Below, one piece after another: positions 6,297 to 57,593 of a DNA stretch of 64,000 bases. Each line of letters begins with the position of its first letter. The stretch's first letter is position 1. The position numbers were made by a program, and so were the translations under genes. The notes below the pieces were generated by a model. It ran no database searches and had not been told where the DNA came from. It was given only the letters and a program-made list of their open reading frames with translations. Source of the stretch: a virus; IMG/VR virus record IMGVR_UViG_3300029984_000008, positions 7,836-71,835 of that record. One strand, 5' to 3'.

Positions 6297-8009
6297 ATGA
6301 CAGTAAGCTATTCAGCAGTAGACAAATTTAATGTCAGTAATGGCTTTAACCAGGTCAAGTTCGGTAGCCCAGCTAAGATACTTGAAACTGAGCTTAATGA
6401 AATGCAAAAGATACAAAATAACCAATTAGGACTACTAGGGAAGTCACTTATAACAGATGGTTTCTATACTAAAGCCACTATGACACTCTCAGGTACTGTG
6501 CTAACAGTACCAGCTACCACTGTAGTAATTGGGGGCATAGCCTATATAATACTGGGAGACATGACCCTCAGTGTATCCAGTGGTGATATTGTATACTTAG
6601 CTGTTATTAATACAGAGGTCACTGGTGATACCTCACTGGTAGCTAGTGGTAACTTAAGTGGTGGCGCTGTTATAGCTAATAATATTAATGATACTAGAAT
6701 GGGCGGCCTAGAGACAGCACACAGAATACAGGTACAATTTCAGCTTACAAAGACTAATACAAACTCAGCGGCTATTTATTTAGCTGTAGCTACTATGACA
6801 AGTGGCACTACATTTACAGACAATCGTATAAAATGCACGGTAGCTCTAGGGGACGTTACAAAAGCAGACAAAATTGCAGCGCCAGTAGCTGATGACATAC
6901 TAACAATGGATGCCAGCGGTAACCTAAAAGATTCAGGTAAAAAAGTAACTGACCTTGTAGCTAACACCGACTTAATATACCCAGTAGCAGGTGGTACGGC
7001 TACAGCTCTTACAGTGACTGGTGTAACGCTGCTAAATAACTACCCTAAGACTTTTATAGCTGGTGCTAGCAACGGTGGCGCTGCTACTACTATTAACGGC
7101 ATAAAGGCGTACAAGCCAGGGGGTACTCTACCTCCGACTTTTGTAGTGGGTAAGCCCTATACTATTTACTACAATTTAGCAGGTCCCAATTTTTTTGTTT
7201 CTGCTAGTGCAGAGGGTACTGCACTAGCGTCTCAGGTTCTAGCACCTACAACATTCAGTAATGGTGTAGATGTCAATATTCCAGGAACTATGGTCGATAG
7301 AACAGGTACACTTTTAGGAGCAACAGGTGTAGCTGACGGAGTAGGGGATGTTACATTAATCCCTCCAATCGGATTTTACGACGGTGTTACTGCTAAAATA
7401 AAAGCATGGGATACTAACTTTATTGCTTCTAATTTTTTAAGCACTGTATCAATGTTTGGATTAACTGGAAGTATTCCCGTTTTAACGGGCTATAGAAATG
7501 CCACAGGTGTTGGAAAATGGGGGAATGGAGATTTAGCTGTTTATCCTGAAAAGGGTTATCAAAAAGGTGGTGCAGGTGATGGTGAAATAAGAGTATCAGT
7601 TGCTCAGATACAATCTGTAAATGGAAATCTACAGTCTGGTAATATAGTAAACAATATGGAAATATGTGGAATAATAGGTAATGTAACAATAGAAAGTTTG
7701 GGTGGAAAAAAATATGCTACTGGTACTTCCACTGTATCAACAGGTGTCATTTTAAGCACTATAAATTTATCTGGGCTAGGGTTTACACCTTCTACGATAA
7801 TGGGTATTGGAACAGCTATAGTTGATGGTAGTTATCAAGGTGTAGGGGTATTTTACCAAAGTAATTTAAATACGTTTTATTATTACTATCAAGGTATTGG
7901 AATGAAATTGTTTAATACTTCATCGTATAACTTATCTAGCCTTAATGTGCTTCAAACAGAGGGTAAGCCAGTAACTAGCGGCACTATTACATGGTACGCT
8001 TACGAATAA
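6297..8009 (+). CDS. Tail fibre / receptor-binding protein
   Basis: N-terminal F..V.FG..ILE.ELNEMQ baseplate-anchor motif; Gly/Thr-rich beta-type body; C-terminal W.AYE. Confidence 0.75.
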   Translation: MTVSYSAVDKFNVSNGFNQVKFGSPAKILETELNEMQKIQNNQLGLLGKSLITDGFYTKATMTLSGTVLTVPATTVVIGGIAYIILGDMTLSVSSGDIVYLAVINTEVTGDTSLVASGNLSGGAVIANNINDTRMGGLETAHRIQVQFQLTKTNTNSAAIYLAVATMTSGTTFTDNRIKCTVALGDVTKADKIAAPVADDILTMDASGNLKDSGKKVTDLVANTDLIYPVAGGTATALTVTGVTLLNNYPKTFIAGASNGGAATTINGIKAYKPGGTLPPTFVVGKPYTIYYNLAGPNFFVSASAEGTALASQVLAPTTFSNGVDVNIPGTMVDRTGTLLGATGVADGVGDVTLIPPIGFYDGVTAKIKAWDTNFIASNFLSTVSMFGLTGSIPVLTGYRNATGVGKWGNGDLAVYPEKGYQKGGAGDGEIRVSVAQIQSVNGNLQSGNIVNNMEICGIIGNVTIESLGGKKYATGTSTVSTGVILSTINLSGLGFTPSTIMGIGTAIVDGSYQGVGVFYQSNLNTFYYYYQGIGMKLFNTSSYNLSSLNVLQTEGKPVTSGTITWYAYE

Positions 8010-38646: not shown

Positions 38647-38890
38647 ATAATAGACCCAGAGGACTGTATACTTTTTAGAAAGACCTTTGTATATTAACAA
38701 TAAGGAAGTGGGAAACATTTCCAATTAATATATAAGGAGAGGGTAGTATGCTAATATTTGTAGGGTATGTGGTAGCTCTATTTGCAACTCTATTGTGGCT
38801 AGAGAGTGCGCTGTATAAAAAAGACCCAAGAGACTAGCTAAGTGGAGCATACAGTGCTCCCAAAATAAAATAAAGAGGATGTGTTAATTA

Positions 38891-40072
38891 ATGAATAAAG
38901 AAGAGATATTTGAAATAATGAAAGAAATAACTGGTAGGTGCTTTGAAAGCCCCCAAGAAGTAGAGGTATTTTTTGGTGTATCGTACAGCGAAATTTATAT
39001 AGAAATACATCATATAATAGTTAGTAATAATGACCCAGAGCTTTTTGAAATGGCTGTGAGGGCACATACAGCTCTAACATATATAACATTACAAAAATCT
39101 ACTAATAGGGCAGAAATAGAATTATATCTATTATCATTATTAAAAAATAAAAAGGATGGTGAATAATTATGAAATTGAATAAAAATACACCTGTAAAACA
39201 AGCTGTAAAACAAGAGGTAGTACAAACTGTAAAACAACCAGTAACAAAGGCACCTGTAAAACCTACTATACCTGCACCTAAGGCTACAGAGGCTGTAAAA
39301 CAAGTAGCACCTAAAGTTGTTGCACAAGCTGTAAAACCTACACCTATAAATCTACCTATAAATCTAGATGATGCTAAGCTATTATTTAAGCCAGAGCCTA
39401 ACGAGACAGCTGTAGCTCAGGAACAAAAAGGAATAATGATAAGTGATAAGTATATGATACAGACTCTGGACGTACTTAATGTAGTATTAAAAGAAAAGTA
39501 TATACCTAAGCCTAAGGTTATAGCTGGGGAACCTACAGAGGACTCTGAGGATATAGAAGAGCCTGATGCTGAGGTGCCTGAAGGTCAATGGAAAATAGTA
39601 GCGTTCTGCGCTAGCATAGAGCTTGCATTTAAGGTTATTGTAAATAGAGAAATCAATATCACCATTAATAAAGGACTCGAAGAAGTAGTTAAGAAGGTAG
39701 CAGAGCTTAAGACCTTTAAAACTAAATTAGTAGAGAGGTGCAGTAGTGAGAATGAATAGAATATCAAATGCTTATAGCGATGTAGTAAATACTCTTACAG
39801 AGGCTAGTATAGAGGTCACAGTGTTAACACTAAATGCTATTAGATTTATAGACCTGAAGGATGAGATGCAGCTGCAGGAAGCACTGGCTACGGCTAGGCA
39901 GCTAGAGCCTATAGAGAACGACTATGTGGTTAATAGATATGCTGACGTATTAGACTTCTTAATAGAGCATAGGCTAGAAACTAATAAAGCTAACATACAT
40001 GTATTCACTTTCATAGACCTTAATGACAAAGATAGGGTTAAGAGTGCCCTAAGAAATCTAGAGGTGGTGTAG
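38891..40072 (+). other. Three hypothetical genes (38891-39166, 39169-39759 with Pro/Lys/Val repeats, 39746/39752-40072)
   Basis: Consecutive ORFs with RBSs. Confidence 0.55.
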
Positions 40073-40119
40073 TACGTAATATGTTTAAATTGCGTAGTAA
40101 ATTTAAGGAGGAATTAAAA

Positions 40120-40653
40120 ATGAAAAAAGTAAATGGGACTTATGTAATTAGTGCTTTTCCTGCATGTGGAAAAAGTTATTGCTTTAATAATCATCAAGAT
40201 GAGTTTTCTATGTTGGATAGTGATAGTAGCGAGTTTAGTTGGATTAAAGGTGCTGATGGAAAAAATACTACAGAAAGAAATCCCAATTTCCCACAAAATT
40301 ATATCGAGTATATAAAGGCTAATATAGGCAAGGTAGATATAATATTTGTATCAAGCCATGATGTAGTTAGAAAGGCTCTAAAAGACAATAATATAAAAGT
40401 AATTATAGTATATCCTATTAAAGATTTGAAAGAAGAATGGATAAGAAGATTCAAAGAAAGAGGTAATAACGAAGGCTTTATTAACTTTATATCAAGCAAT
40501 TGGGATAATTTTATTGATGATATAGAGAATGAAGATTATGGTTTTCTAAAAGAAGGATTGAGTCGTGCAGATATATACTTAGATTTGAATTTCTTATACG
40601 GTTGTTTTGACAATTCAATGGGAAATTTAACTTGTCTTTGGAAAAATGAGTAA
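40120..40653 (+). CDS. P-loop kinase/NTPase
   Basis: VISAFPACGKS Walker A; DSDSS.F; RBS AAGGAGG before ATG 40120. Confidence 0.7.
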   Translation: MKKVNGTYVISAFPACGKSYCFNNHQDEFSMLDSDSSEFSWIKGADGKNTTERNPNFPQNYIEYIKANIGKVDIIFVSSHDVVRKALKDNNIKVIIVYPIKDLKEEWIRRFKERGNNEGFINFISSNWDNFIDDIENEDYGFLKEGLSRADIYLDLNFLYGCFDNSMGNLTCLWKNE

Positions 40654-40675
40654 TTCGCAATACTAAAATATGACG

Positions 40676-40724
40676 AAGAAAAGCCCGTAGCCTCTACACT
40701 ATAGTAGAGACACGGGCTTTTCTT
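40676..40724. terminator. Bidirectional terminator between convergent units
   Basis: aagaaaagcccgt...acgggcttttctt. Confidence 0.7.
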
Positions 40725-41616
40725 CTTTTCCATACCATATGCTACCCAGTGGATTTATCTCTACTTCATCTTTTGAAGCAAAGAGCCACTGAAGGTCTGT
40801 ATTATCTATTCCGTATATACAGTCTCTTAGTACCAGGGCCCTAGCTTTTGTAGGGGCAACGGTTAGCACTAAAGGAAAACTTCCATAGGTAGCCTCAAAG
40901 GTTCCTGAGCCATAGAAAGCTGCATATCTTTTATGCTTACGCTGGAATACTTGCGGTGTCATAGTCCCATTGTCCCACTCTAAAAAGAAGTGAAAGCCTT
41001 CATCTTCAGAGAACCAATACTGGCCGTAGGCATCTGGATTGCATATCATACGCTCGCCCCAGAACTTAAAACTATGCCTACAGTGGTTCTCTGTTCTGAA
41101 GCCAGTTACCTCATGACCTAGCTCTCTAGCTTTTCTAAGCAAGTAGAGATAGAAGTTATTAGTATCTACCATGTGCTCTAGGTACGGAAGTCTAGCCTCA
41201 TTCATTTCATAGGACCAGGAAATATCTTCTATCTTTTGGCCTAGCATACCAGCGACTACCTTAGCACCTAATTCATCTAGGACCACGTGCCCCTGTGAGC
41301 TGCCTTCATTTCCTACGTCAACAAAGAACCTGTCTACTATACGGTTATCAAATAATTTTCTAATCCTACGTCTTGCTATGAGTTCTGCTTGTGTATTTTC
41401 TTTGCCTCTGAAGCTATACTTATAGTGCATTTCAGCTATTTGCCTAGTGGTGAGGCAGCGCTGATAGTAGAGAGACAGCAGCATTTCTTTATCTCTAGGG
41501 GTTAGACTAGCTTTTTGAAGAGCTTCAGGGGTACTACGACTCACCTCTGTATACTTACGACTAAACTTAGATATTCTGCGACTAGTTATACACCTAGCCT
41601 TTTCTTTATCGTCCAC
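40699..41616 (-). CDS. Replication-relaxation (Replic_Relax) family nuclease
   Basis: LTPRD..ML..LY..R.LTT.QIA, RRR.RKL, LEH..TN.FY, PDAYG and FFLEWD.GT (wHTH plus PD-(D/E)XK). Confidence 0.85.
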   Translation of the reverse strand: MDDKEKARCITSRRISKFSRKYTEVSRSTPEALQKASLTPRDKEMLLSLYYQRCLTTRQIAEMHYKYSFRGKENTQAELIARRRIRKLFDNRIVDRFFVDVGNEGSSQGHVVLDELGAKVVAGMLGQKIEDISWSYEMNEARLPYLEHMVDTNNFYLYLLRKARELGHEVTGFRTENHCRHSFKFWGERMICNPDAYGQYWFSEDEGFHFFLEWDNGTMTPQVFQRKHKRYAAFYGSGTFEATYGSFPLVLTVAPTKARALVLRDCIYGIDNTDLQWLFASKDEVEINPLGSIWYGKEEKPVSLL

Positions 41617-41629
41617 TTTTTTAACCTCC

Positions 41630-44158
41630 TTATTTTTTCTTTTTAATGCGTCCTGTGGCCTTACCTATTTTCACAGGAGCACTGTCATCCTCTGTAATCT
41701 GGTTCTTTTGAGTTAAGCTATATCTTTCTTGTATATCATCTTTAATCTGGTCTAGCCTCATATAGTTCTTTTTCTTATACTGCTCTTTCCACGCTTGCAC
41801 TTCCTTAAGTCTAGTAGCCTCTGCAACTACTCTGCCTTTATCATCTACATATGGAAAATAGACATTCATATCTAAATTGTCAAATGTGAAGGGATTAGGG
41901 TGAATCTTTTTAAACCTACCATAGCCAGTATACTGAATCATAGAGGTCAGGTCGTCCTCTGTTACGCCAGGGAACATTCTTTTAATCTTAGTGGCTGAAG
42001 AGGTACCAATGAGTAGACTAATTTGAGTAAAGGTATTATCCTCTATCATACCCATAAGCTGTGCTGGAATCTGCTCTACGCTCTGATGAGCCATGATTAA
42101 GCCTAGGCCGTAACTTCTAGCCAGCTCAAGGAACTTTTGTATATCCTCTGACTGATTAATGAATAGTTCAAACTCATCCATGAATAGTATATGAGGTACA
42201 CGGTCCTTAACTGGTATATCACCTCTAGAGAATATTCCATTAGATACAAGGGCTGTGAAAAGTGTACCAAAAAAGGACACTATTTCTGTGGTATTTTTAT
42301 CCATAGCATAATTAACTATAATTATAGCTTTTTCATCTAATAATTTACGCCAGTCGAATAAATTAGCCCTTTGACACATACTATAGCGAGGTAGCTCATT
42401 TTGTGTAATAATTTCAAGTTTATTTAATATAGCCTTAGCTTCATTTTGTCGAGCCTTTGGTGTCATATGAGCATAGCTCAGCCAGTAACTGAGGACGTCA
42501 GGAAAGTCTGTGTGGTCCTGCATCTTTTCAATAGTGTGTATTAGGTAGTCTTCATCTGTGAACATACGATATACTTCGAGGATAGAACCCTCTTCATTAG
42601 TAGATATAACAGCTATAAGAGCTCTCCTTAGTATACTTTGGCTGTGCTCTTTTATAGAGCCTTCAGAGTTTAATTTTAGGAATACACTTACTATCATAGT
42701 TGCTAGGTTATAAGTGCTCATGCCTGGCTGTCTTAGAAAATTGATAGGCATAAACATTGTTAGGTCCTGCATATCTATATACTGTATGCGGTTCCACTCA
42801 GACTTAGGTAAGTGGGCCATAAGGTCATCTGCTACGTCTCCCTTTACATCAAAGAATGTCATGCCGCAAAATCTAGTAATCTGAAGAGCTATAAATGATA
42901 ACCAGTAGCTCTTACCTGAGCCTGTACCTCCTATACAGTAGACATGCTGCATTAGCATCTTAAGGTCCTTAAAAGCTAGGTATTTTTGTCTACCTCTGAA
43001 GTTAGACATTCCGAATACTATAGCTTTATCTGCCCATGCCTCTTCAATAGTGTTATATTGATATACACCGTCTGGTACTGCCATTTTCTTAGCTCGGAGT
43101 CTTATTACACCTGGAATGTTTTTGGAGGGAAAGTGGAGCACTGTGGCGAGTTCTGGAGGGGTCACATAGTTTTCTGTAGGGTAGACTGCAATGCTTCTAT
43201 CTGAATATTCTTTCAGAAATTTACTCACTTGAGTTATATTAAATATCTTAAGCCAGGGCCTCTTCACTGTCTGCTTATAGACTTCACGGTAGTTTGTATA
43301 AGCTCTAAATCTATTTTTATCGGTGGCTGGTGCAAAGGCGCTTATTACAGTATTTAATCTAGCCCTACCTTTTTTAAAGTCTGGGTTATAACAAACTGCC
43401 CTAATATTGAGGTCAAAATATACACCAGCTTCCAGCTTTTTCTGAATACTGGAGAGACTGGTGTTATGGTCTTTAGCTCCTGAATTACCCACTACTGCAT
43501 ACTTTAATGCGCCTACCAGAGCTTTTGGTGATTCTAATAAGCCCGTCCACTTAGTGTAAGGCTGGTGTAATTTAGAAGGTCTGGAGCTTGTCTTTTTATA
43601 TATTTCATAATAGCTACTGGCTATAGTAAGTGCTCTGAAGTTGATAGGGCGTAGTGTAAACTGCACCCATACCTCTTCATTATCATCTAAATTTTGCATA
43701 CTAGCACAGAGGCTAGCCACCATGTCAGCACCTACACGCTCACCGTCACTCTGTAGTAGATTAAATATATAATGACTATCAAGGTCCAGGGTAGCACAGG
43801 CACTTTTTACAGCGGTTATACTACCAGGTTTGGCGTAGTCTTTATTTGCATCTATTGCTACTATCTCTGCAGCTGGGTGGATTGAGTTTATATTAGACTG
43901 TAAAAATTCCTGTGTAACATTATCTGATAGCCATGCGTAGAGGCTTATACCTTTAGCTGTCCCTTGAAACTCAAAGGTTAGCCAGGTATAAGGATTTTTA
44001 GAATTATATATAGTGTAGAGGCTATCGAATAGGTTGTTATACTGTGAAGGTTTAAACTCTGCATCTTTCTCTATATAAATCTGGTAGAGGTGGCCACCTT
44101 CAGAGGCCTTTCTTAATTTATTTCTACAGTAAGGGTACATTAATGATTTAATTATCAT
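41630..44158 (-). CDS. VirD4/TraG-like coupling ATPase (HerA/FtsK superfamily)
   Basis: H..CIGGTGSGKS (Walker A), FFDVKGD, PINFL, ILFMDEF (Walker B), ARSYGL.L.MAHQS.EQI; ~350-aa N-terminal extension. Confidence 0.85.
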   Translation of the reverse strand: MIIKSLMYPYCRNKLRKASEGGHLYQIYIEKDAEFKPSQYNNLFDSLYTIYNSKNPYTWLTFEFQGTAKGISLYAWLSDNVTQEFLQSNINSIHPAAEIVAIDANKDYAKPGSITAVKSACATLDLDSHYIFNLLQSDGERVGADMVASLCASMQNLDDNEEVWVQFTLRPINFRALTIASSYYEIYKKTSSRPSKLHQPYTKWTGLLESPKALVGALKYAVVGNSGAKDHNTSLSSIQKKLEAGVYFDLNIRAVCYNPDFKKGRARLNTVISAFAPATDKNRFRAYTNYREVYKQTVKRPWLKIFNITQVSKFLKEYSDRSIAVYPTENYVTPPELATVLHFPSKNIPGVIRLRAKKMAVPDGVYQYNTIEEAWADKAIVFGMSNFRGRQKYLAFKDLKMLMQHVYCIGGTGSGKSYWLSFIALQITRFCGMTFFDVKGDVADDLMAHLPKSEWNRIQYIDMQDLTMFMPINFLRQPGMSTYNLATMIVSVFLKLNSEGSIKEHSQSILRRALIAVISTNEEGSILEVYRMFTDEDYLIHTIEKMQDHTDFPDVLSYWLSYAHMTPKARQNEAKAILNKLEIITQNELPRYSMCQRANLFDWRKLLDEKAIIIVNYAMDKNTTEIVSFFGTLFTALVSNGIFSRGDIPVKDRVPHILFMDEFELFINQSEDIQKFLELARSYGLGLIMAHQSVEQIPAQLMGMIEDNTFTQISLLIGTSSATKIKRMFPGVTEDDLTSMIQYTGYGRFKKIHPNPFTFDNLDMNVYFPYVDDKGRVVAEATRLKEVQAWKEQYKKKNYMRLDQIKDDIQERYSLTQKNQITEDDSAPVKIGKATGRIKKKK

Positions 44159-44174
44159 AATAGTCTGTGCCTCC

Positions 44175-44366
44175 TTATATTAGCGCTTTTACAGCTTCCC
44201 AAATATGGGTAACTAGGTCTGTAGCTAATTTTCCGCTACCAATGTAGTCCCGTAGTAAGAATAGTATTTTTGTTACGAAGATAACTGTTACACCTGTATA
44301 TGTGGTTACTAGAGTCCATTTAATTATAAAACCTTCAACTTCTGTGTGCTTTTGAGCATCATACAT
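44175..44366 (-). CDS. Small membrane protein
   Basis: One long hydrophobic segment; RBS AGGAGGTG; same operon as the ATPase. Confidence 0.7.
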   Translation of the reverse strand: MYDAQKHTEVEGFIIKWTLVTTYTGVTVIFVTKILFLLRDYIGSGKLATDLVTHIWEAVKALI

Positions 44367-44377
44367 GCCAACACCTC

Positions 44378-44944
44378 CTACATATTAAGCATAGTGCTTA
44401 TTGACTGATAGATAGTAGTGAATAGACCTATTACTTCCTTGAGTATAATTGCACCGCCTACAAAGGATACTAGAGGTATAAAATCACCACGGCCTGTAAA
44501 CTTTAAGAAGCTGCATACTACTAGAGTAATAAATCCTATAATTAGCATATGAAGCAGTATAGCCCCTTGACCTGAGAAGAAGTTACCTCCACCTTCAGCG
44601 TATACTTCAATTGCGTCGCCACCGTATTTATTGTAGGCTACAATTTTTTGTAGAAATTCTCCTGGATGTAGTTTAAATAAACCAAAACTAAATGCAGGTA
44701 CCCCTATCATAATAGCAGCTGTGATTTTTTTATTATTCATGAACCAGCGGATAAAATGTCTGCTATTTACTATAGCTGAAATATCCTCTGTAGAGGCTGT
44801 AGGAAATACTGTTTTACATGTTACTATGTCATCTACAACGCCCCTTCGACCTAGTTTAAATACCTCTGACATAGTAGTACCAGGCATTAGCTCCTTTATA
44901 GTATTTAGTTCACTAAATTTTACTGAATAGCTGTTGTTTAACAT
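44378..44944 (-). CDS. Membrane protein with C-terminal SpoIIIAC/AD-like domain
   Basis: C-terminal 60 aa IIGFITLVVCSFLKFTGRGDFIPLVSFVGGAIILKEVIGLFTTIYQSISTMLNM follows the SpoIIIAC pattern G(I/F)..V..LK..GR....G...L..VI....Q...TM; similarity judged by eye. Confidence 0.6.
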   Translation of the reverse strand: MLNNSYSVKFSELNTIKELMPGTTMSEVFKLGRRGVVDDIVTCKTVFPTASTEDISAIVNSRHFIRWFMNNKKITAAIMIGVPAFSFGLFKLHPGEFLQKIVAYNKYGGDAIEVYAEGGGNFFSGQGAILLHMLIIGFITLVVCSFLKFTGRGDFIPLVSFVGGAIILKEVIGLFTTIYQSISTMLNM

Positions 44945-45004
44945 CTAAATCCTCTCCTATATGTTTTTGTTGTATCAGGGTATATTACCCTGTATTCCTA
45001 CTAA

Positions 45005-45032
45005 TAAATTATGCTGTTTTACAAAATGTGTG
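45005..45032 (-). promoter_or_regulatory. Sigma-K/sigma-E-type (mother-cell) promoter
   Basis: Minus strand cAC-16-CATAattTA, upstream of the 44944 operon and downstream of a terminator. Confidence 0.5.
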
Positions 45033-45078
45033 AATATTTTTACTGTACTTGAAGGTGTATTGGCTATGAATAATACAT

Positions 45079-45125
45079 AAAAAGAACACAGCAAGCGCCT
45101 AAATAGCTGCATTTGCTGTGTTCTT
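45079..45125 (-). terminator. Intrinsic terminator after the hydrolase gene
   Basis: aagaacacagcaa...ttgctgtgttctt with a T-run on the minus strand. Confidence 0.75.
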
Positions 45126-45161
45126 AATCAATGTGACTTATTTCTATTTTTTATTTTTCTT

Positions 45162-45584
45162 TTACCATATTTTAATAAGAAATTTGTGTCTCTTCATTGC
45201 GGAACTTAGTTTGTCACCAAATAAATGTGATAAGCCGCCTATAACTACCATATAATACATATCTGTTCCTTTTATTGTATCTGTAGTTAATAGTAAGAAA
45301 GGTATTGATATTATTAGTAGGCCAACTATACTATGACAATGTCCTCTGTGTTTCATAAATGGTGTAAATGGATTATATCGCCCTAGTGTACTATTTCTCT
45401 GGTCAATATCTGGTAATAAGCTGCCTATAAGTACTGCCATGAATAATACTGGACTATGCGCTATAAAGTAAGCTACTATGGAACCTATGACCAAATGTCC
45501 TGTATAATTGAAGATAACACACCTTCCTTCTATCTCTCTTATTTCTCTACTATTAGTATGTGCATTTCTAGCTTTTATATGCAC
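45162..45584 (-). CDS. Membrane-bound metal-dependent hydrolase (YdjM-like); true start probably near 45515
   Basis: GH, GSLLPDID, HRG..HS and SHL.GD motifs with TM segments. Confidence 0.8.
   Translation of the reverse strand: MHIKARNAHTNSREIREIEGRCVIFNYTGHLVIGSIVAYFIAHSPVLFMAVLIGSLLPDIDQRNSTLGRYNPFTPFMKHRGHCHSIVGLLIISIPFLLLTTDTIKGTDMYYMVVIGGLSHLFGDKLSSAMKRHKFLIKIW
45554..45582 (-). promoter_or_regulatory. Sigma-G promoter
   Basis: Minus strand GCATA-17-CATACTA, an exact consensus match. Confidence 0.7.
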
Positions 45585-45600
45585 GGTAAATAATGGAATT

Positions 45601-46038
45601 TTAAAAATTATTGCCTAATAGCCTACTCTTCACTGAGCTTCTTAGCTGCTCTTTATCCTTATTCTTAGCTAGGGGGCTTGGCTTAACTGTAGGCTCTGGG
45701 AAGTTCTGCCAAAAAAAGTCCTCTCTCTTATGTTCTTCTTTTACCTCTTCAGGTGTATTAACTACTTTCTCCTCTTCCTGTATGTTGTTAGCTACTACTA
45801 GTTTATCTATTTGACGCTGTGGTAGCACCTCTGTGGCTACTTGAGTCTCTGTTGCTGCTCTGTCTATTTGATGCTGTGTTAAAGCACCTGGGTACTTTTG
45901 TTGCTCTATAGCAAGCACCCTACGATATACCTCTTTAAGCCTGCTTGTCCTATCTTTGTATTTGTCTAGGTCCTTTATTATATCAGCATCTGTATTTGGA
46001 TTAAGTCGAAAACCAACTGGTTTACTAATCATAGCCAT
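45601..46038 (-). CDS. ParR-like ribbon-helix-helix adaptor
   Basis: N-terminal VGFRLN..DADII..L..RT..LK (RHH-like); disordered middle; directly downstream of parM. Confidence 0.65.
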   Translation of the reverse strand: MAMISKPVGFRLNPNTDADIIKDLDKYKDRTSRLKEVYRRVLAIEQQKYPGALTQHQIDRAATETQVATEVLPQRQIDKLVVANNIQEEEKVVNTPEEVKEEHKREDFFWQNFPEPTVKPSPLAKNKDKEQLRSSVKSRLLGNNF

Positions 46039-46039
46039 C

Positions 46040-47080
46040 TTATATCAATCCTTCCTTAATCTTTAGCATTCCATATTTCCTATAGCCACTGGCGTTAGAG
46101 TACTCAGGCTCGTCTAACTTTATAACGGGGATGCCTGTAAGCTCTACTAGATAGTCATAGTAGAGGTTTGCGCCACCTCCACATATTAGTATAGCTGAGA
46201 ACCTTCTGAAGTCTGGAACCCATACACTAAGCTCCTGAGCAAGCTCTGGGAATACCTGGTCTATTGCTTGCTTGCATAAGTCAGCAACGTCTGTGCTAAC
46301 ACCTCCGAGTTTAACTAGTCCTGTTCTTAGGACCTCATCAACTTTATAAGGGGGTATAGCGTACTTATGCTTCTTAAGCACAAGCTTCCTAAGCTCATTT
46401 TGTACTTTATGAACGCCGTGCTGTATAGTGAAGCTATCCTGGCTGAAGCTTGCAGCCTCCATGATACAACCATCTGTAGTCTTTCCACCGAGGTCAAGCA
46501 CTAGCACATCCTCTGAGGCTAATTCTATGTGGTCCATGTTCTCAGTGCCATCTTCATTTAATACAAAGTCAAAGAACGCCCCAGCGGACTGTGGGAGAGT
46601 AAGAGACCTTTTAACTTGCACAAACTTCTCACTATCACCAAAACCAAACTTGAAGTCACCTTTAAGCCTCTCCGTAAAGTTATCCCTTATCTCATCTACC
46701 ATAAACTCTTCTACGGGTAAGCCGCTAACTATTAAGTCTATAACACTCTTTCCAGTCTCCTCATTGTAGAGGCCTAGCATTGCAAGCATCTTCGGTGTAT
46801 CGCTCTGAGATACTAGACGCTCTGCGTTAAAGTCATATGAACCCTTAGCACCTACATTCCATACACCTACCTGGTCTGTTATGATATAGCCCTCTGAGTC
46901 TGCTAAACCTGAAACTACGACCTCCGAACGTCTCTTTACTATGCTAGCAAATTTACAGCTCCAGTGAGCTGCTACTGCCTTACCTTGGGTATAGCCTAGG
47001 TCAATTGCTAATACTTCTGGGTCCACTGTAATTGCTGGTTTTAGATTTGTTTTCTTGATTGCTGTATTTGTCATTTTCAC
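46040..47080 (-). CDS. parM: ParM/StbA actin-like partition ATPase
   Basis: AIDLGY..K, VSGLP, PQSAGA, VLDLGGKTTD, ICGGGA and N..GY.KYG. Confidence 0.9.
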   Translation of the reverse strand: MKMTNTAIKKTNLKPAITVDPEVLAIDLGYTQGKAVAAHWSCKFASIVKRRSEVVVSGLADSEGYIITDQVGVWNVGAKGSYDFNAERLVSQSDTPKMLAMLGLYNEETGKSVIDLIVSGLPVEEFMVDEIRDNFTERLKGDFKFGFGDSEKFVQVKRSLTLPQSAGAFFDFVLNEDGTENMDHIELASEDVLVLDLGGKTTDGCIMEAASFSQDSFTIQHGVHKVQNELRKLVLKKHKYAIPPYKVDEVLRTGLVKLGGVSTDVADLCKQAIDQVFPELAQELSVWVPDFRRFSAILICGGGANLYYDYLVELTGIPVIKLDEPEYSNASGYRKYGMLKIKEGLI

Positions 47081-47131
47081 TGCTCCTATTCCTTTATTGT
47101 TATACAGAAAACTAAGTCCCTGTAATACACT

Positions 47132-47160
47132 ATATTCGACACCATTACAGAAGTTCCTGC
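47132..47160 (-). promoter_or_regulatory. Sigma-H promoter of parM-parR
   Basis: Minus strand GCAGGAACT-11-GTCGAATAT versus consensus RnAGGAwWW-11/12-RnnGAATww. Confidence 0.75.
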
Positions 47161-47223
47161 CTGGCTGTATAACACTTATATAAATTTTTGTTGTACACAG
47201 ACTATACTACCAGAGTTATCCTT

Positions 47224-47252
47224 GTATAACAAGCAGCGTAAAGGGTATACTA
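47224..47252 (+). promoter_or_regulatory. Sigma-F/sigma-G-type promoter
   Basis: GTATA-14-GGGTATACTA. Confidence 0.5.
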
Positions 47253-47348
47253 TTACTATAAAGATAGCGTATACTTTTTAGAAAGGCCTTTGTATAGTAA
47301 TATTGAGGGGATACAGTCCCCCAGAATAAAAAGGATGGTGTTGTATAA

Positions 47349-47906
47349 ATGGAAAGAATATCAAACATTATTAATGAATTAGAACTTGACTCTTATGTAG
47401 GAACTTATGAAGGTAAAGACTTCCTAGTTGTTAGCAGCTGGAATGAACACGCACAAATTGAAAAGGCGCTAGGTAATAGCATAGACAGCGAAATAAGCAA
47501 CGACTGGGGCTTCGATGATGAGTATTCAACTTGCAGCAGATGCAATAAAATAGTTAGGATTAGTCCTGACAGCTATAGCTGGTTACCTGACTATGTAGAT
47601 ATGAACTGTGAGCGTATATGTCATGAGTGCTTAAACATTGAAGACTACTTTGAGTTTATAAGTAATAACCCTAAAAACGCTAATACCATATATAAAGATA
47701 CTGACATAATAGAACAAGGCTACGAGCTACTAGGTGTCTATGAATCTGGATGGGATGGTGTTAATACTAGACCCGTAGATATATACAATAGATATAAAGA
47801 TGACTATGAAAGTATAATATTCTCTATATTCAATCAAGAACAATTTAGAACTGAATACAGTGCCTGGGGAAAAGGTAAAATAGAGATAGTAGAGGATGAA
47901 GAGTAA
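47349..47906 (+). CDS. Acidic hypothetical protein with CxxC pairs
   Basis: CSRC..CHEC; D/E-rich; follows motif copy 6. Confidence 0.65.
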   Translation: MERISNIINELELDSYVGTYEGKDFLVVSSWNEHAQIEKALGNSIDSEISNDWGFDDEYSTCSRCNKIVRISPDSYSWLPDYVDMNCERICHECLNIEDYFEFISNNPKNANTIYKDTDIIEQGYELLGVYESGWDGVNTRPVDIYNRYKDDYESIIFSIFNQEQFRTEYSAWGKGKIEIVEDEE

Positions 47907-47946
47907 GCCTCTACAATAATTAACAATATATGCACTTCAAAGAGGT

Positions 47947-47975
47947 GCATATATTTTTGGTTCCTGGACATACTA
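47947..47975 (+). promoter_or_regulatory. Sigma-G/sigma-F-type promoter
   Basis: GCATA-14-GGACATACTA. Confidence 0.6.
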
Positions 47976-48081
47976 ATACTGTAGACATAAAGGGCCGTAT
48001 ACTTTTTAGAATGGCCTTTGTATAGTAATAATAAGGGAAGTGCAGTACACTCCCAAAATAAAAAAAGGATGGTGTATTAAT

Positions 48082-49680: not shown

Positions 49681-49933
49681 ATAAAATTAGACACTGGTTT
49701 ACCGTCCAGTATCTAATAGCCCTTGAAATTAATTCTCTCTATTAACTCTTGCATTTACATTATAACCCAATTAAATAAAATATTCAAGGACCAGCAGCTC
49801 ATGTAGCCTCTGGTCCTTTTTTATGCCCTGGAGAGACCCTAGAATGGGGCGTATACTTTCTCGAATGGCCTTTGTATAGTAATAGTGAGGGGATACAGTC
49901 CCCCAAAATAAAATAAAAGGATGTGTATTAATA

Positions 49934-51842
49934 ATGAGTAAAAGAATCGGTTGTGTAGAAAACATGGTAAAAAGAGCAATGGAAAATGTAGAGGCGCATA
50001 TAACAAGAAATGGAAAACACGTATATGCTGCTACTTATGCGGCTGGAATATTAGAGCTAGAGCACTATGACACTACAATACTAGAGTATGACCTAAACGC
50101 TAAAAAGATAGTAAGCTGGGGTGGCTGGAGCAACTCAGACAGAGATGCTCTAAATACAGTATTAGAGCATTGCATGTATCATCCAGGTAATGAATACTTC
50201 TACATGAAAAAAGATGAATTACACCTCGGCGGTGTAACTGAATAGCTACTAAATAATACAGGGGCTACAGCATAGCCCCTACAATAAAATAAAAGGATGG
50301 TGTTAATTATGAAAACAACAGTAATGAGTATATCTGAATACAACCAATATATGAATAAAGAGCTTACTTTGAGACAGATAAGGAAGCAACATTCAAATAA
50401 TAATAAAGCAGCAATTGCACTAGGGATAGCCGCAGCACTTTTAATAGCTGGGATTACTTTAAATGCAATGGATGGTGCGGTGGCTTATGCGTATGTTACA
50501 GAGGCTGAAACAGCTTCAGCTATTCAAGCATTTTTTATAGGAACTGGTTTATCAATATAACAAATAGAGGGGACCTCAGGGTCCTCCAAAATAAATAAGA
50601 AAGATGTGTATTAATTATGGCAGGTAAAAAAGAATTTAAGTGGGATAAAGAAGAGTTAGTAAGTACAGAGATTATAAGTGAGCATGAAAAGAGAGAGGCT
50701 AGAATCTGTGAATTAAAAGGTAAAGAGTTTGTGGTATTCACTACTCTTAAATATATCAAGAATGCGTGGTTACCCTGTAGCGGCTATAGTATACCCAAAG
50801 AAATCTGGTCAAGTATCGTAGAGGCTGTAAATAAAACATTAAAAGGAGGTAAAAAATAATGTTAGATAAGTTTGGTGTATCATACGGAAGTGATAGAGTA
50901 GAAAATGGTTTAAAAGGTGATTGTAAGCGATATGCTGGTAAAATAGGTGCTGAGCGTGTAGCTAGAATAGGTGAAGAAAAAATGAAGTACTACCACCAAT
51001 TGCAAGAGCTTAATGCAACCATAGAAGCTACGACTAAAAATAAACGTATCAAAAATAAACAAATAAGTCATAAGGTATTAGCAGATAGATATAGAGCCTT
51101 ATTTAATTATAGAAGTTTAGACTATTACATGTATAGACTAGGTGTTGACTCACTAATTACTAGTACTACTAAAGTTGGCGTTGAGTATGAGCTACATGAG
51201 CTATATGATGAAGCTAGTTATATGCTATTAGCATTAGGTGAGTATAAAGGCTATGGCTCAATACACTGGATGTATGGCTGTGGCTGCCATGCCTGGGAAG
51301 CAGCAGGTGAACCAGACTTTCCTGAAAAAGACAGCTATTTACGTGAGGATTTAGGAATCCTGCTTTACTAGGATATAATGATAGTGGGGCCTCTGGGCTC
51401 CCAAAATAAATAAAAGGGTGTGTATTAAATGAAAAAAGATAATATAAGTGTTAAAGGATTTAAAGGGACTTGGTATATAATAGATGAGGCTTATTTCAGT
51501 GGCAAAGAGGTGTATCTATTAGAGCATGAAGAGTTTGGAGACGAGGCAGCATGCATAATAATAAATAAAGAACTTGAATTAATCTTAAATAATGTATGGA
51601 ATGGTTTTGATGACCTAGAGGAGCAAGTAGAAAAGAAGGAGCTTGACTTCAGTACCTGGAGACGAGACAACGGATATAAGTCTAAAGCTCAGCTATATAT
51701 TGACATAGTAGAGAGCCCTGAAGAGGACGAAGATGCAGAGGAGACGCAAGACAGGGCACATGATGAGCAAGAAGAGCTAGAACAAAAGTTTTACGACTAC
51801 TGTGAAAGCTACGGCTTTACAGCGGTAATGGATGAAGACTAA
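49934..51842 (+). other. Cassette cluster of five genes (49934-50245; 50309-50560 membrane; 50617-50859 possibly PC4/YdbC-like; 50859-51371; acidic 51429-51842)
   Basis: Follows motif copy 8; most genes are preceded by a hairpin plus the AAAATAAAAGGATGTGTATTAA-type leader. Confidence 0.6.
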
Positions 51843-51976: not shown

Positions 51977-54116
51977 ATGATATTAAAATTTATAAATCAA
52001 CATGGTCACATTAAATTAGTAGAGGTTCCTGAGGATACTATGTGTATAAAGATAGAGATAAATGACAGTATTACCAATAGCATAGTGATAAATGATGAGG
52101 GTAGAGTACCAGGCAGCGTAAGCACTGAGGTAATAGTGGACGGTGCAACTTATAATTTTGATACACCTGAAACAGCTCTTAGCATAGGCAAGATGGATGA
52201 AGAGGGTTACCTATGGAGAACAGAGGCCGTGTTATACGCTACAGACAACGGCAGGTTATTAGCGCAAAACCAAACTCAAGGATACTCAAGTACACCTAAA
52301 CCTGTGGCAACAAAACCTTGGACCAGAAGAGATATAAGCTACAGGTATATTAAGAAATCAGAAAAAGGAGGTACACTATAATGGCCTGTAAATTTGAGGA
52401 CCTATGTGAACACAGGGGCACTAGCTACTGTGAAGATTGTACACATGACCCTGAATATGTAAGAGAATGCCAATTTGACTGGAACGGTGAAGACGAGGAG
52501 CCTACGCAAGAAGAATTAGCTGATGAGACCTATTCATAGAGCCCATATACTTTCTGGAAAGGCCTTTGTATAGTAAGAGTAGAGGAGCAGCAGCTCCCAA
52601 AATAAAATAAAAGGATGTGTATTAATAATGAGAACTATCCATAATAAAAAGACTATACCTATTAACGGCTGGAGAAGTAGAACATTAGCTCAATATTATT
52701 TTAGTGATTATCATGCAGAGGATAAGTTTTTTGATGACATGAAGTTTATAGTACCAGCAAAAATTATTCAATTACTACCAGACTTTGACGGGACAAACCA
52801 AGCTTATGCTAATAGCTTCAAGGGTGAGCTACTATGCACAATAGAGGACATGGACGGTGACTACGGCTTCCATATAAGTTTAGAGCCTATTAAAACTGTA
52901 GAGCAAATGAGAGAGGCTTATGGCGTATGGAGCGACTGTCTTAAAACTAGTATAGAACGCAAATGTGTAGGCCTCTACTGGAAAGATGTAAGACCAGAGG
53001 ACCTTATAATGCTTATAAGATTGGACGAGATAAGAGGCGCAAGACTTTTAATAAATGAACACGACCACGGGTACTTGTATGACAACGACTTAATATACAC
53101 AATGCTACAATTATACGGGGACGATATTTTCGACAAGCTAAATAAAGCATGTATGCTATAAAAGGGGTGTGGGTGTAAATGAAAAAGATGCATGTATATG
53201 AGTTTAATGAGGGACTAGATGGTGTGATAGTGGCTAAGAGTGATAAGCAAGCGGCTAAGATGCTGGTAAAAGTCTATGATGGCTATACTGTTAATCAAAT
53301 ATTAGCACTTTGTAAAAATAAAGACTGTGAGGCAAAGATAGGGGGCGACGACTGGATAGTGGACATAGGAAAAGAGCCCAAAAAAGAGTGCTATAAGAAA
53401 GCAGCATTCCTAGGCTGGTGCAACTATTAGTAAATAAATAGGTTCTGGGGCAGGGGTGCCTCAGGACTTAACTTAAGAAATAAATTTGAATAGTGAAAGG
53501 ATGTAATGTAATGAAACCAATGGTAGAAATTAAGGACTTAAAGGACTGGGATATATTCAATATGTTAGAGCTAGCACAGGGTGCCCTAGCTAATGCAGGG
53601 CAGGCTGAGCAATTAGTATCAATGACTAGTCGTGTACTGAGTAGCCAAAGCTACAGCGACTCAAAACTTATATTACAGGACTATGTGGATTTTAAGTAAG
53701 GTAAACTAAATGGTATAAGGGTAAACAATTGAGAAATAAATAGATATATGTGAGAGGGGAAGTTAATTATGCTAAGGTTGTTAAAAGTAATAAATAAATC
53801 AGAGGATAGAGAGAGTACAGGTTCACCTGAGGTGGGCTTTGCGCACTATACAGTTAATTACCCAGCACTTAATTCAAGACTATTTAAAAATGATAGAAGA
53901 ACCTATGACCTCTGTATTATTCATGTACATGCTAAGGAGTGTGGCTTAGGGTTCAAGGTAGTAGAAATAGGTAAGCCTCATTTAATAGGCACCAGGGTCC
54001 ACTATGAAGCACTACAGGGGCCAGTAGATTTTAATGCTTATCAAGATGTGCTACAAGCGCTAATAACTAAGTTTAATGAAACCTATAAGGAGGACTTAAG
54101 CTATGACTGTATATAG
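51977..54116 (+). other. Hypothetical genes (51977-52381, 52381-52539, 52628-53161, 53179-53430, 53511-53699, 53769-54116)
   Basis: ORFs with RBSs. 52381-52539 is a 52-aa Cys/acidic ORF absent from the track. Confidence 0.55.
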
Positions 54117-56534: not shown

Positions 56535-57593
56535 TTATTTTTTATAGCTAGTTGATACTAAGTGTCCACGGTGGCCGTCGATTGTGTTACTAAATGTATA
56601 AGTTACACCATCTATAGTATGAGTGCCAGTGTACATTACACCACTTGCATCTAAGTAGTACTTATAGCCATCAGCGTCTGAGAACCAGCCTACCTTATTA
56701 GCGCCATTATCCACATAATACCAATTCATATTCTTTAAGGTCCAGCCAGTGAAAGTATCTTTAGTAGCTGCCTCTGTGGCTGCAGCTGCATATACACTAC
56801 TTGAGTTTGAGTGGTGGTGGCCTGATGAAGATGAAGTAGCTATTACAGCTGAGCCAGTAGTAGTTGTAGCTGCAACAGGTGTAGTAGTTGTACTATTTCC
56901 AGTATTTGAAGTTGCGTTATTATCTTTAGCAGGAGCTATTACAACAGGAACTACAGTGCTAGTATCTTTTGTAGTTGTACTAGAAACGTTGGTAATATTT
57001 GTTATCACATTAGTAGTATTATTTATAGTTGTGTTATTGCTGCCTATAGTTGTATTGTTGCTATTTATATTAGTGATGCTCTTATCAATGTTAGTTGTGC
57101 TATTATCTATGCTAGTATTATTACTATCTGTAGTCTTGCTCTTATCAATGTTAGTGGTGCTCTTATCAATGTTAGTGGTACTTGCGTCAATGTTAGTATT
57201 ATTGCTATCTATAGTCTTGCTCTTATCTATAGTAGTTGTGCTATTATCAATGCTAGTGTTATTTGTAGTTGTGCTAGTAGTGTTTCCGCTGTCCTTAACA
57301 TCTACAGAGGTGCTTTTATCTATGGTGGATGTACTATTGTCGGTGGTATTATTAGCAGTACTACTATTACTATTAGCAGTGCTACTATTATTATCAGAGG
57401 CTGCACCAGTAGTAGTTCCAGTATCTTTATCTTTATGTGCATTTTGATTTGCATTAGGGTTAGTGGTTCCAGTACCTTGAGTAGTTCCATTAGTATTACA
57501 TTGGTTAGAATTAGTAGCAGCAAATACTGGAGTAGCTAATAGAGTAGTAGAGGCAACAATCATAGCAGTAAAGATTCTTAATGATTTTTTCAT
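56535..57593 (-). CDS. Secreted Asn/Thr/Ser-rich protein with C-terminal cell-wall-binding repeats
   Basis: Signal peptide (MKKSLRIF..PVFAA); ID.S.T / D.NNT repeats; GW..WYY..GW..YY.D.SG.M.TG choline-binding-like repeats. Confidence 0.75.
   Translation of the reverse strand: MKKSLRIFTAMIVASTTLLATPVFAATNSNQCNTNGTTQGTGTTNPNANQNAHKDKDTGTTTGAASDNNSSTANSNSSTANNTTDNSTSTIDKSTSVDVKDSGNTTSTTTNNTSIDNSTTTIDKSKTIDSNNTNIDASTTNIDKSTTNIDKSKTTDSNNTSIDNSTTNIDKSITNINSNNTTIGSNNTTINNTTNVITNITNVSSTTTKDTSTVVPVVIAPAKDNNATSNTGNSTTTTPVAATTTTGSAVIATSSSSGHHHSNSSSVYAAAATEAATKDTFTGWTLKNMNWYYVDNGANKVGWFSDADGYKYYLDASGVMYTGTHTIDGVTYTFSNTIDGHRGHLVSTSYKK

Follow-up and report, generated by a model that had tools for sequence, protein, structure and literature searches.

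A phage membrane protein with a SpoIIIAC-like hairpin encoded in a predicted DNA translocation operon

The AC188 locus

The window analysed here is a 64,000-nucleotide (nt) stretch of viral DNA, positions 7,836 to 71,835 of the IMG/VR virus record IMGVR_UViG_3300029984_000008, which is 71,835 bases long with a completeness estimate of 74%. Its minus strand contains an open reading frame (ORF) for a membrane protein of 188 amino acids (aa), which we named AC188. The C-terminal part of AC188 appears to be a distant homologue of the two-helix hairpin of the sporulation proteins SpoIIIAC and SpoIIIAD, and its gene is a fixed part of a four-gene core that also encodes a small protein with a single transmembrane (TM) segment, an ATPase without TM segments and a Replic_Relax protein. 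Proteins encoded in the window include baseplate, tail, helicase, primase, DNA polymerase and ribonucleotide reductase. Because baseplate and tail genes are found together with replication genes, the window is assigned by gene content to a tailed phage of large size whose baseplate is of the contractile-tail type.

On the minus strand the genes are read in the order ParM346, 145-aa protein, YdjM140, RNA hairpin, AC188, TM63, ATPase and Replic_Relax. They are listed by coordinate with the evidence for each.

40699..41616, minus strand: relaxase-like protein of 305 aa, relaxase or nicking-initiator-like (Pfam Replic_Relax, 1.1e-24)
41630..44158, minus strand: P-loop ATPase of 842 aa, of the VirD4/type IV coupling protein (T4CP) and HerA-FtsK kind (Pfam, PHROG and hidden Markov model, HMM)
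44175..44366, minus strand: TM63, a 63-aa protein with a single TM segment at residues 19-37 (ORF and hydropathy)
44378..44944, minus strand: AC188, a 188-aa membrane protein with a SpoIIIAC-like C-terminal hairpin (open ORF, ATG start)
45076..45125, minus strand: RNA hairpin followed by a U-run, between the YdjM140 gene and AC188 (fold of -22.4 kcal/mol)
45162..45584, minus strand: YdjM140, a 140-aa membrane protein of the YdjM family, putative metal-dependent hydrolase (Pfam YdjM, 5.9e-17)
45601..46038, minus strand: 145-aa protein directly after ParM (ORF)
46040..47080, minus strand: ParM346, a 346-aa actin-like ParM/Alp partition ATPase (Pfam ALP_N 8e-12, MreB-like_C 3.9e-13)

The AC188 gene has a ribosome-binding site, GGAGAGG, 6 nt upstream of its ATG. 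TM63 starts 12 nt past the AC188 stop codon and ends 17 nt ahead of the start codon of the ATPase gene; it has no Pfam, PHROG or NCBIfam match. The ATPase matched the Pfam families T4SS-DNA_transf (28.1 bits, cut-off 20.1), TraG-D_C and DUF87, as well as phrog_5156 (6.8e-47) and, below its cut-off, the NCBIfam VirD4-like CD1115 family (38 bits). No TM segment was detected by hydropathy along its 842 aa. Against PDB sequences it gave weak matches only, to HerA, FtsK, DotL and TrwB. Precomputed domain assignments place PF26449 in the N-terminal region of ATPases of this family; a local Pfam scan of the window ATPase did not report it. The 305-aa relaxase-like protein also matched phrog_9381, "replication initiation by nicking", at 2e-23.

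No match was found in phage or plasmid collections by megablast of window positions 40000-48000 or by tblastn of the 188-aa protein. Close relatives of AC188 come solely from IMG/VR, metagenomes and one Ammoniphilus contig.

Domain organization and family of AC188

Hydropathy analysis placed three TM segments in AC188, at residues 74-92 (TM1), 129-147 (TM2) and ~156-178 (TM3). The protein begins with a helical N-domain (~1-70) in the cytoplasm. TM1 is followed by an acidic, variable linker (~94-125) and then by the SpoIIIAC-like hairpin, in which the invariant loop FLKFTGRGD (146-154) lies between TM2 and TM3 and an amphipathic helix forms the C-terminal end. Four K/R and no acidic residues precede TM1, the linker (94-125) is net acidic and the loop (146-156) is basic. 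This pattern of charges around the TM segments fits a topology with the N-terminus inside, the linker outside, the loop inside and the C-terminus outside. In the AlphaFold model (mean pLDDT 76, pTM 0.38, from a 24-row alignment), short helices form the helical domain at 10-70 and a further helix spans 72-89; residues 108-122 are a disordered linker, and the hairpin at 126-150/153-187 is predicted with confidence (pLDDT 85-91).

A word-indexed search of 5.8 billion proteins yielded 24 relatives of AC188. When these are aligned, the final ~65 residues hardly vary, and 31 columns there, FLKFTGRGD included, are invariant, while the N-terminal part differs in both length and sequence; the hairpin has a mean pairwise identity of 0.73, vs 0.32 for the N part. 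When 1.84 billion representatives were searched exhaustively with a profile, 22 clusters were returned at E <= 0.001, 18 of which pass 1e-10 and 13 pass 1e-30. One of the 22, P0042 (1461 aa, 10 stretches), was rejected as a spurious match to a low-complexity repeat protein. Shorter stand-alone relatives of the hairpin were not found in the indexed protein collection, and the distant family members P0043 and P0044 were not found in scans of viral contigs. The family profile had no match at E <= 1 among PDB sequences, and AC188 had none in a PHROGs search.

Relationship of the hairpin to SpoIIIAC

The Pfam model of the SpoIIIAC/AD family (PF06686; gathering cut-off 24 bits) matched residues 130-185 of AC188 over positions 1-56 of its 56, with E 4.7e-5 and 23.9 bits. 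The same whole model was matched by 23 of the 24 homologues at E <= 0.1 (best 4.7e-6). The Ammoniphilus homologue scored 24.6 bits, over the cut-off; among the distant members, P0043 scored 22.4 bits and P0044 31.5 bits, the latter above the cut-off. Pilin models gave a different result: neither PF04956 (TrbC/VirB2) nor PF18895 (T4SS_pilin) matched AC188 at E <= 1, and TrbC/VirB2 was matched weakly (0.094) by two of the 24 homologues.

As a reference, PF06686 was searched in 61 Firmicutes genomes. It matched 53 of them, 52 over the cut-off, and the usual spoIIIA pattern was three adjacent matches, one from SpoIIIAC and two from SpoIIIAD. The domain was almost confined to the spoIIIA operon. 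The sole extra match was a fourth one in the Ammoniphilus genome, and this protein is a member of the AC188 family.

The profiles were then compared with each other by local hhalign. For the C-terminal region of the family, 42 of 43 proteins were aligned, a truncated one being left out. A phmmer search of 30 spoIIIA loci had given 28 ORFs of SpoIIIAC size and 32 of SpoIIIAD size; all 28 SpoIIIAC and 30 of the 32 SpoIIIAD ORFs were used (two extra ORFs from loci already holding SpoIIIAD were omitted), with identical sequences collapsed. The family C-terminal region aligned with SpoIIIAC over 57 columns with a probability of 96.4%, P 1.4e-9 and a score of 49.4. Scores against SpoIIIAD (8.4%, score 20.8) and against six Firmicutes TrbC ORFs (0.5%, score 12.5) were far lower; the TrbC ORFs came from a search that matched 12 of 151 genomes, five over the cut-off. 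Reversal controls scored 10.0 (family vs reversed SpoIIIAC) and 11.3 (reversed family vs SpoIIIAC), and 50 column-shuffled SpoIIIAC profiles gave a mean of 10.1 with a standard deviation of 1.7 and a maximum of 13.9. For scale, SpoIIIAC aligned with SpoIIIAD at 94.3% with a score of 46.2. The AC188-family hairpin is therefore about as close to SpoIIIAC (49.4) as SpoIIIAC is to SpoIIIAD (46.2).

It had been claimed in the first-pass annotation, from an alignment made by eye, that the last ~60 aa reproduce the SpoIIIAC two-helix hairpin. The full-model Pfam match and the hhalign probability, with no control above 13.9, bear this out. The alignments also contain the motifs it named, a Gly in the first TM helix of the hairpin, an LKxxG[RK]G loop and a Gly in the second. 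The preceding part of ~125 aa with one further TM segment, likewise described there, is recovered both by hydropathy (74-92) and in the AlphaFold model. A profile search of the C-terminal region against the SpoIIIAC/AD family, which it had proposed as the check, gave matches with both Pfam and hhalign, and no VirB2/TrbC or holin match surpasses that to SpoIIIAC. Judged from these comparisons, the C-terminal hairpin of AC188 is a distant homologue of the SpoIIIAC/AD hairpin.

AC188 and SpoIIIAC share a two-TM hairpin of ~56-60 aa with Gly residues in both TM helices, a cytoplasmic LKxxG[KR]-acidic loop and an amphipathic C-terminal helix, and both are encoded beside a secretion-type ATPase system (for SpoIIIA, as stated in excerpts of PMC2703783). 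They differ in size, ~65 aa for SpoIIIAC vs 188 aa for AC188 with its added cytoplasmic domain, TM1 and linker, and in context, since SpoIIIAC lies in the spoIIIA operon beside spoIIIAD, whereas AC188 is found on phage or plasmid-like DNA. The partner ATPases also differ: SpoIIIAA is of the GspE/VirB11 type and the ATPase next to AC188 of the VirD4/HerA type. Pairwise identity to genuine SpoIIIAC is 27-28% (13/48 for AC188; 13/47 for the Ammoniphilus member vs the SpoIIIAC of the same genome). The NCBIfam SpoIIIAC equivalog TIGR02848 gave AC188 16 bits (E 0.012) and its cut-off of 56.65 was not reached. Because of this score, the lack of spoIIIA neighbours and the extra N-terminal cytoplasmic domain and TM helix, AC188 is not regarded as the sporulation protein SpoIIIAC itself. 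With its own nearly invariant loop signature, the family looks like an old and separate one and not a host subunit captured recently.

SpoIIIAD itself, an ORF of ~130 aa, regularly gave two separate full-length matches to the SpoIIIAC model across the 30 spoIIIA loci. With two such matches in one ORF, SpoIIIAD is a tandem duplication of the hairpin. SpoIIIAC is a far better match for the AC188 family than is either of the two SpoIIIAD halves.

Conserved gene order in related operons

Eleven related loci were fetched, among which L002, L003 and L058 have the same sequence, as do L004, L061 and L062, so that seven distinct operons were compared with the window. In all eight, window included, the AC188-like gene is followed by an ORF of 61-80 aa with a single TM segment and then by a TM-less ATPase of the VirD4/HerA type. 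A Replic_Relax gene follows the ATPase in all seven operons that reach that far (L059 ends within the ATPase). Intergenic gaps in the core are 12-20 nt, or the genes overlap. On the 32-kb Ammoniphilus contig (Ammoniphilus resinae DSM 24738) the genes of the four-gene core touch or overlap, and the core is flanked by a tyrosine recombinase gene and by a gene that resembles, by eye, the ParA type. The AC188-like gene is thus a fixed part of a four-gene core consisting of the AC188-like gene, the gene for a ~65-aa single-TM protein, the TM-less ATPase gene and the Replic_Relax gene.

Genes for ParM, a ParR-like protein and a YdjM-like protein usually lie upstream of the core. The YdjM-like gene is found in six of seven assessable operons (it is absent from L006, and L059 is cut), and ParM in four of six (not in L005 or L006 at E <= 1e-3). 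ParM346 of the window belongs to the SPO1 gp27.9 family (tblastn 4.6e-14 against gp27.9) and matched phrog_691, "partition protein", at 3.4e-48. The 145-aa protein that follows it had no significant match in Pfam, PHROG or NCBIfam. Its N-terminal ~40 aa are conserved beside ParM in the related loci L002, L004 and L060, and by position it is likely to be a ParR-type DNA-binding adaptor; an analogous RHH gene follows ParM in Tyroviruses (excerpts of PMC9703825). YdjM140, upstream of AC188, has two TM segments by hydropathy.

Comparison with known DNA translocation operons

A family HMM built from 38 sequences of the ATPase matched, over nearly their full length, SPO1 gp27.4 (2.4e-48), phage G gp156 (1.4e-79), a DUF87 protein of a B. 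subtilis plasmid (1.3e-73) and Geobacillus phage D6E gp23 (7.4e-42); it did not match the ATPase of Thrax1. The relaxase-like protein, of the SPO1 gp27.3 family, had tblastn matches in 30 phage records, among them SPO1 gp27.3, Tyrovirus gp18 and CP-51-type phages; the naming of this family as relaxases follows PMC3357382.

A "DNA translocation operon" was named in phage 0305phi8-36 by Pathria et al. (2012, PMC3357382). As the excerpted text of that paper describes it, the operon relaxase is tied to MobC of CloDF13, and the coupling ATPase has no TM helices, from which its authors argued that separate membrane proteins must anchor the ATPase. The case made there consists of informatics and a deletion. 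The operons of 0305phi8-36 (orf200-207), SPO1 (gp27.3-27.9) and Tyroviruses (gp11-18) have the same order of ParM, a small DNA-binding protein, small membrane proteins, ATPase and Replic_Relax, and in them as in the window the coupling ATPase is TM-less and ~840-935 aa long. In SPO1 the layout is gp27.9 (ParM), gp27.8, three proteins of 48-73 aa, gp27.4 and gp27.3; in Thrax1 it is ParM, small proteins, M23 peptidase, ATPase, Replic_Relax and recombinase. The AC188 cluster contains a Replic_Relax gene beside the gene for a VirD4-like ATPase that has no TM segment and belongs to the SPO1 gp27.4 family, together with the actin-like ParM346 and the membrane protein genes AC188, TM63 and YdjM140. 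By this gene content, the AC188 core appears to be a version of the phage and plasmid DNA translocation operon of 0305phi8-36 and SPO1.

The versions differ in their membrane proteins. In 0305phi8-36 the membrane protein is VirB6-like, according to the excerpted text (PMC3357382). SPO1 and Thrax1 have membrane proteins of 48-73 aa and one of 160 aa, without likeness to SpoIIIAC, and the Tyrovirus version, from a region called plasmid-like in excerpts of PMC9703825, adds an M23 peptidase and a tyrosine recombinase. We compared SPO1 gp27.5-27.7, the Thrax1 proteins of 68, 160 and 50 aa, the D6E protein of 127 aa, phage G gp154 and the plasmid TcpD as candidates for further SpoIIIAC-like proteins, and no SpoIIIAC likeness was detected in any of them.

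Related gene sets also occur next to genes of the type IV secretion system (T4SS) kind. Geobacillus phage D6E (NC_019544) has at L013 3351-3731, between an RHH-like gene and the ATPase gene gp23, a 127-aa ORF that is outside the feature table of the record. It encodes a leader followed by a two-TM hairpin and scored 25.3 bits with T4SS_pilin (cut-off 26.6; E 1.6e-5) and E 0.0044 with TrbC. VirB2/TrbC and T4SS_pilin proteins resemble AC188 in that a leader precedes a two-TM hairpin and the gene lies just ahead of one for a T4SS-type ATPase, but there is no detectable sequence relation between them and AC188. Phage G carries a T4SS-like run at L011 854-6418, comprising the TrbL/VirB6-like gp153 (PF19597, 1.8e-11), the two-TM gp154, the VirB4-like gp155 (CD1110 family, 3.3e-51) and the T4CP-like gp156.

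On the B. subtilis plasmid NRS6116_2 (NZ_OX419581) the same pair of ATPase and Replic_Relax genes lies beside conjugation genes of the TcpC, TcpD and TcpE families. TcpD and TcpE of pCW3-type conjugation loci are, like AC188, small membrane proteins, and on this plasmid their locus has the same ATPase and Replic_Relax. They differ in having no similarity to AC188: TcpD_dom is not among its NCBIfam matches at E <= 1, and hhalign gave 0.1% against one TcpD, a comparison with a single sequence, as none of 301 genomes scored over the TcpD cut-off. The plasmid is typed "non-mobilizable" by MOB-suite despite this gene pair, so current typing schemes may overlook its type of relaxase.

Proposed role of AC188

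Because the ATPase is TM-less yet T4CP-like, and because the gene order is fixed, AC188 and TM63 are candidates for its membrane seat. Separate membrane proteins are to be expected where the coupling ATPase has no TM helices, as the excerpted text of PMC3357382 argues for 0305phi8-36. We lean, by a little, towards AC188 being a membrane anchor or conduit subunit of a translocase. In such a translocase the relaxase-like protein would nick or mark phage or plasmid DNA, and the soluble hexameric-type ATPase would pump or couple that DNA. The ATPase, which has no membrane attachment or conduit of its own, would obtain one from AC188 and TM63. On the cytoplasmic side, the invariant FLKFTGRGD loop and the N-terminal domain of AC188 would offer possible docking surfaces for the ATPase, and the hairpins would pack in the membrane as those of SpoIIIAC and SpoIIIAD are thought to do beside the SpoIIIAA ATPase. 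We infer from context the physical binding of AC188 to the ATPase, the channel function, and both the DNA that would be moved and its destination.

Several observations weigh against this assignment. The score of AC188 falls just below the curated cut-off of PF06686. Foldseek, run with the full AC188 model against the PDB, returned nothing at E <= 0.001, and its top matches, designed helical bundles and connexins, were uninformative. SPO1, Thrax1, D6E and phage G encode small membrane proteins at the corresponding position, but these show no detectable relation to AC188, so that the role of AC188 is argued from position and not from homology across phages. The contact between AC188 and the ATPase is proposed from context and not from a predicted complex: a prediction with the ATPase (842 aa, 38-row alignment) and residues 31-188 of AC188 scored 0.00 twice, which is no answer and speaks neither for nor against binding. 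Deletion of the operon in 0305phi8-36 gave no laboratory growth defect, as far as the excerpted text of PMC3357382 states.

Alternative explanations

The hairpin may instead be a SpoIIIAC mimic that inserts into or docks on the SpoIIIA-SpoIIQ channel of the host, disturbing sigma-G activation or bringing phage DNA into the forespore. It is homologous to SpoIIIAC specifically and not to SpoIIIAD or TrbC, and the sole named host genome with the module, that of Ammoniphilus, has a full spoIIIAC/AD pair. SPO1, which carries a related operon, is trapped in spores as virospores, for which its ParM gp27.9 has been suggested as an aid (excerpts of PMC12991052). One Spo0A-box, TGTCGAA, occurs at 47135-47141 on the minus strand, 55 nt ahead of the start codon of ParM. 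However, the operon of SPO1 has no SpoIIIAC-like protein, and no other SpoIIIA-like gene was found by Pfam among the ORFs neighbouring AC188. The number of Spo0A-boxes in the window is within chance (four vs 1.7 expected; 10 of 100 shuffles reached four), and neither L002 nor L004 has conserved the box upstream of ParM, so this lead was dropped. The identity of 27-28%, low even when the SpoIIIAC comes from the same host genome, the equivalog score far under its cut-off and the loop signature peculiar to the AC188 family also argue against mimicry, which we consider unlikely. The first-pass annotation had suggested that AC188 could modulate the host feeding-tube complex or act on it as a dominant-negative. 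The AC188-like gene is always chained to the small TM ORF, the T4CP-like ATPase gene and the relaxase-like gene, and nothing was found that directly supports this suggestion.

In a second alternative, slightly more doubtful again, AC188 is a pilin-like subunit: TM1 would be a long leader cut by signal peptidase or by the YdjM-like hydrolase, and the remaining ~65-aa hairpin would polymerise as a VirB2-type conduit or pilus. The succession of N-terminal leader, hydrophobic segment, variable Ala/Gly/Pro/Val-rich linker and conserved hairpin is an architecture that we take to resemble that of the TraA, TrbC and VirB2 propilins. A membrane hydrolase gene lies just upstream in six of the seven assessable operons, and the positional analogue in D6E matches T4SS_pilin and TrbC near threshold. 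AC188, however, matches neither model at E <= 1, only two of the 24 members reach 0.094 with TrbC, and hhalign gave 0.5% against it. The operon contains no genes of the VirB4, VirB6 or VirB8 type by Pfam and NCBIfam, and a stand-alone short form of the hairpin was not found.

That AC188 is an unrelated small membrane protein (holin, exclusion protein or filler ORF) with a convergent hydrophobic composition is very improbable: TM hairpins often give false similarities, the Pfam score is just below the cut-off, an Atlas search stayed at lead level (best feature score 0.81, SpoIIIAC cluster 0.80; structure rows all with TM < 0.5) and the structure search was blank, but the whole 56-position model is matched in 23 of 24 members, conservation is strict, synteny is fixed, and reversed and column-shuffled controls at 10-14 vs 49.4 largely refute a chance likeness.

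Novelty and wider context

The operon type is already in print. No publication was found, judged mainly from titles and abstracts, in which a SpoIIIAC-type hairpin is a fixed component of a DNA translocation operon of a phage or plasmid. No phage-borne SpoIIIAC-like gene was found in the titles or abstracts of the literature on SpoIIIAC, SpoIIIAD and phages, and no spoIII terms in the main text of "Human-gut phages harbor sporulation genes"; the supplements of these papers may list such genes. Automatic annotation already names two AC188 homologues as SpoIIIAC/AD family proteins.

SpoIIIAC and SpoIIIAD rank among the least understood parts of the feeding tube. A conserved relative tied to a conjugation-type ATPase and a relaxase on phage DNA would provide a second, independent context for the SpoIIIAC domain, in which its job, such as ATPase docking or channel lining, can be tested. 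AC188 may also fill a gap, as the membrane partner of the operon was predicted in 2012 and has gone unnamed for most phages. SPO1-type phages are known to be trapped in spores, and the AC188 operon thus offers a concrete set of genes, with proposed functions, that may have a role in trapping.

A broader and highly speculative scheme, to which we give little credence, is that the operon with ParM, T4CP-like ATPase and relaxase in phages of the Bacillus group moves the genome across a membrane without a virion, into the forespore (giving a virospore) or into a neighbouring cell. In this clade the SpoIIIAC-type hairpin would have been recruited to work at, or dock on, the mother-cell/forespore interface, the site of SpoIIIA-SpoIIQ. 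Conversely, SpoIIIAC and SpoIIIAD could be ancient membrane adaptors of translocation ATPases; if true, this would point to a role in transport, beyond a structural one, for the two proteins in the feeding tube.

Non-coding elements and other features of the window

The RNA hairpin at 45076..45125 is more stable than expected (z -4.28; none of 200 shuffles was equally stable) and is probably an intrinsic terminator or attenuator. A consensus scan, whose loop rule is 3-8 nt, passed over it. If the hairpin acts as a terminator or attenuator, AC188, TM63, ATPase and relaxase would form a transcription unit that is separate or tuned on its own. In the 217-nt spacer ahead of AC188 no promoter of the sigma-70 type was called. 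A perfect palindrome of 17 nt, with 7-nt arms and a 3-nt centre, lies at 44976-44992 on the minus strand, just upstream of the AC188 ribosome site, and a similar half-site, TACAGGG, is found in the ParM leader near 47120. Both may be operator sites.

An intergenic element of 85-100 nt is repeated ahead of plus-strand genes, at 38651-38705, 47254-47350, 47982-48078, 49836-49932 and 52530-52626 (plus strand). It consists of a conserved GTATAC...TTTGTATAGTAATA stretch, a short GC stem-loop and a AAAATAAAAGGATGTG leader reaching the start codon; leader-only copies occur at 50274, 50581 and 51395. The element looks like a phage promoter with a common 5′ leader.

The minus-strand ORF at 56535-57593 encodes an endolysin-like protein of 352 aa (weak PHROG endolysin match, 1.4e-7). 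A holin reading of AC188 was rejected, as its gene is not beside this ORF and its synteny with the ATPase gene is fixed. Inside the endolysin-like ORF, at 56954-57342, are imperfect tandem repeats of 21/60 nt.

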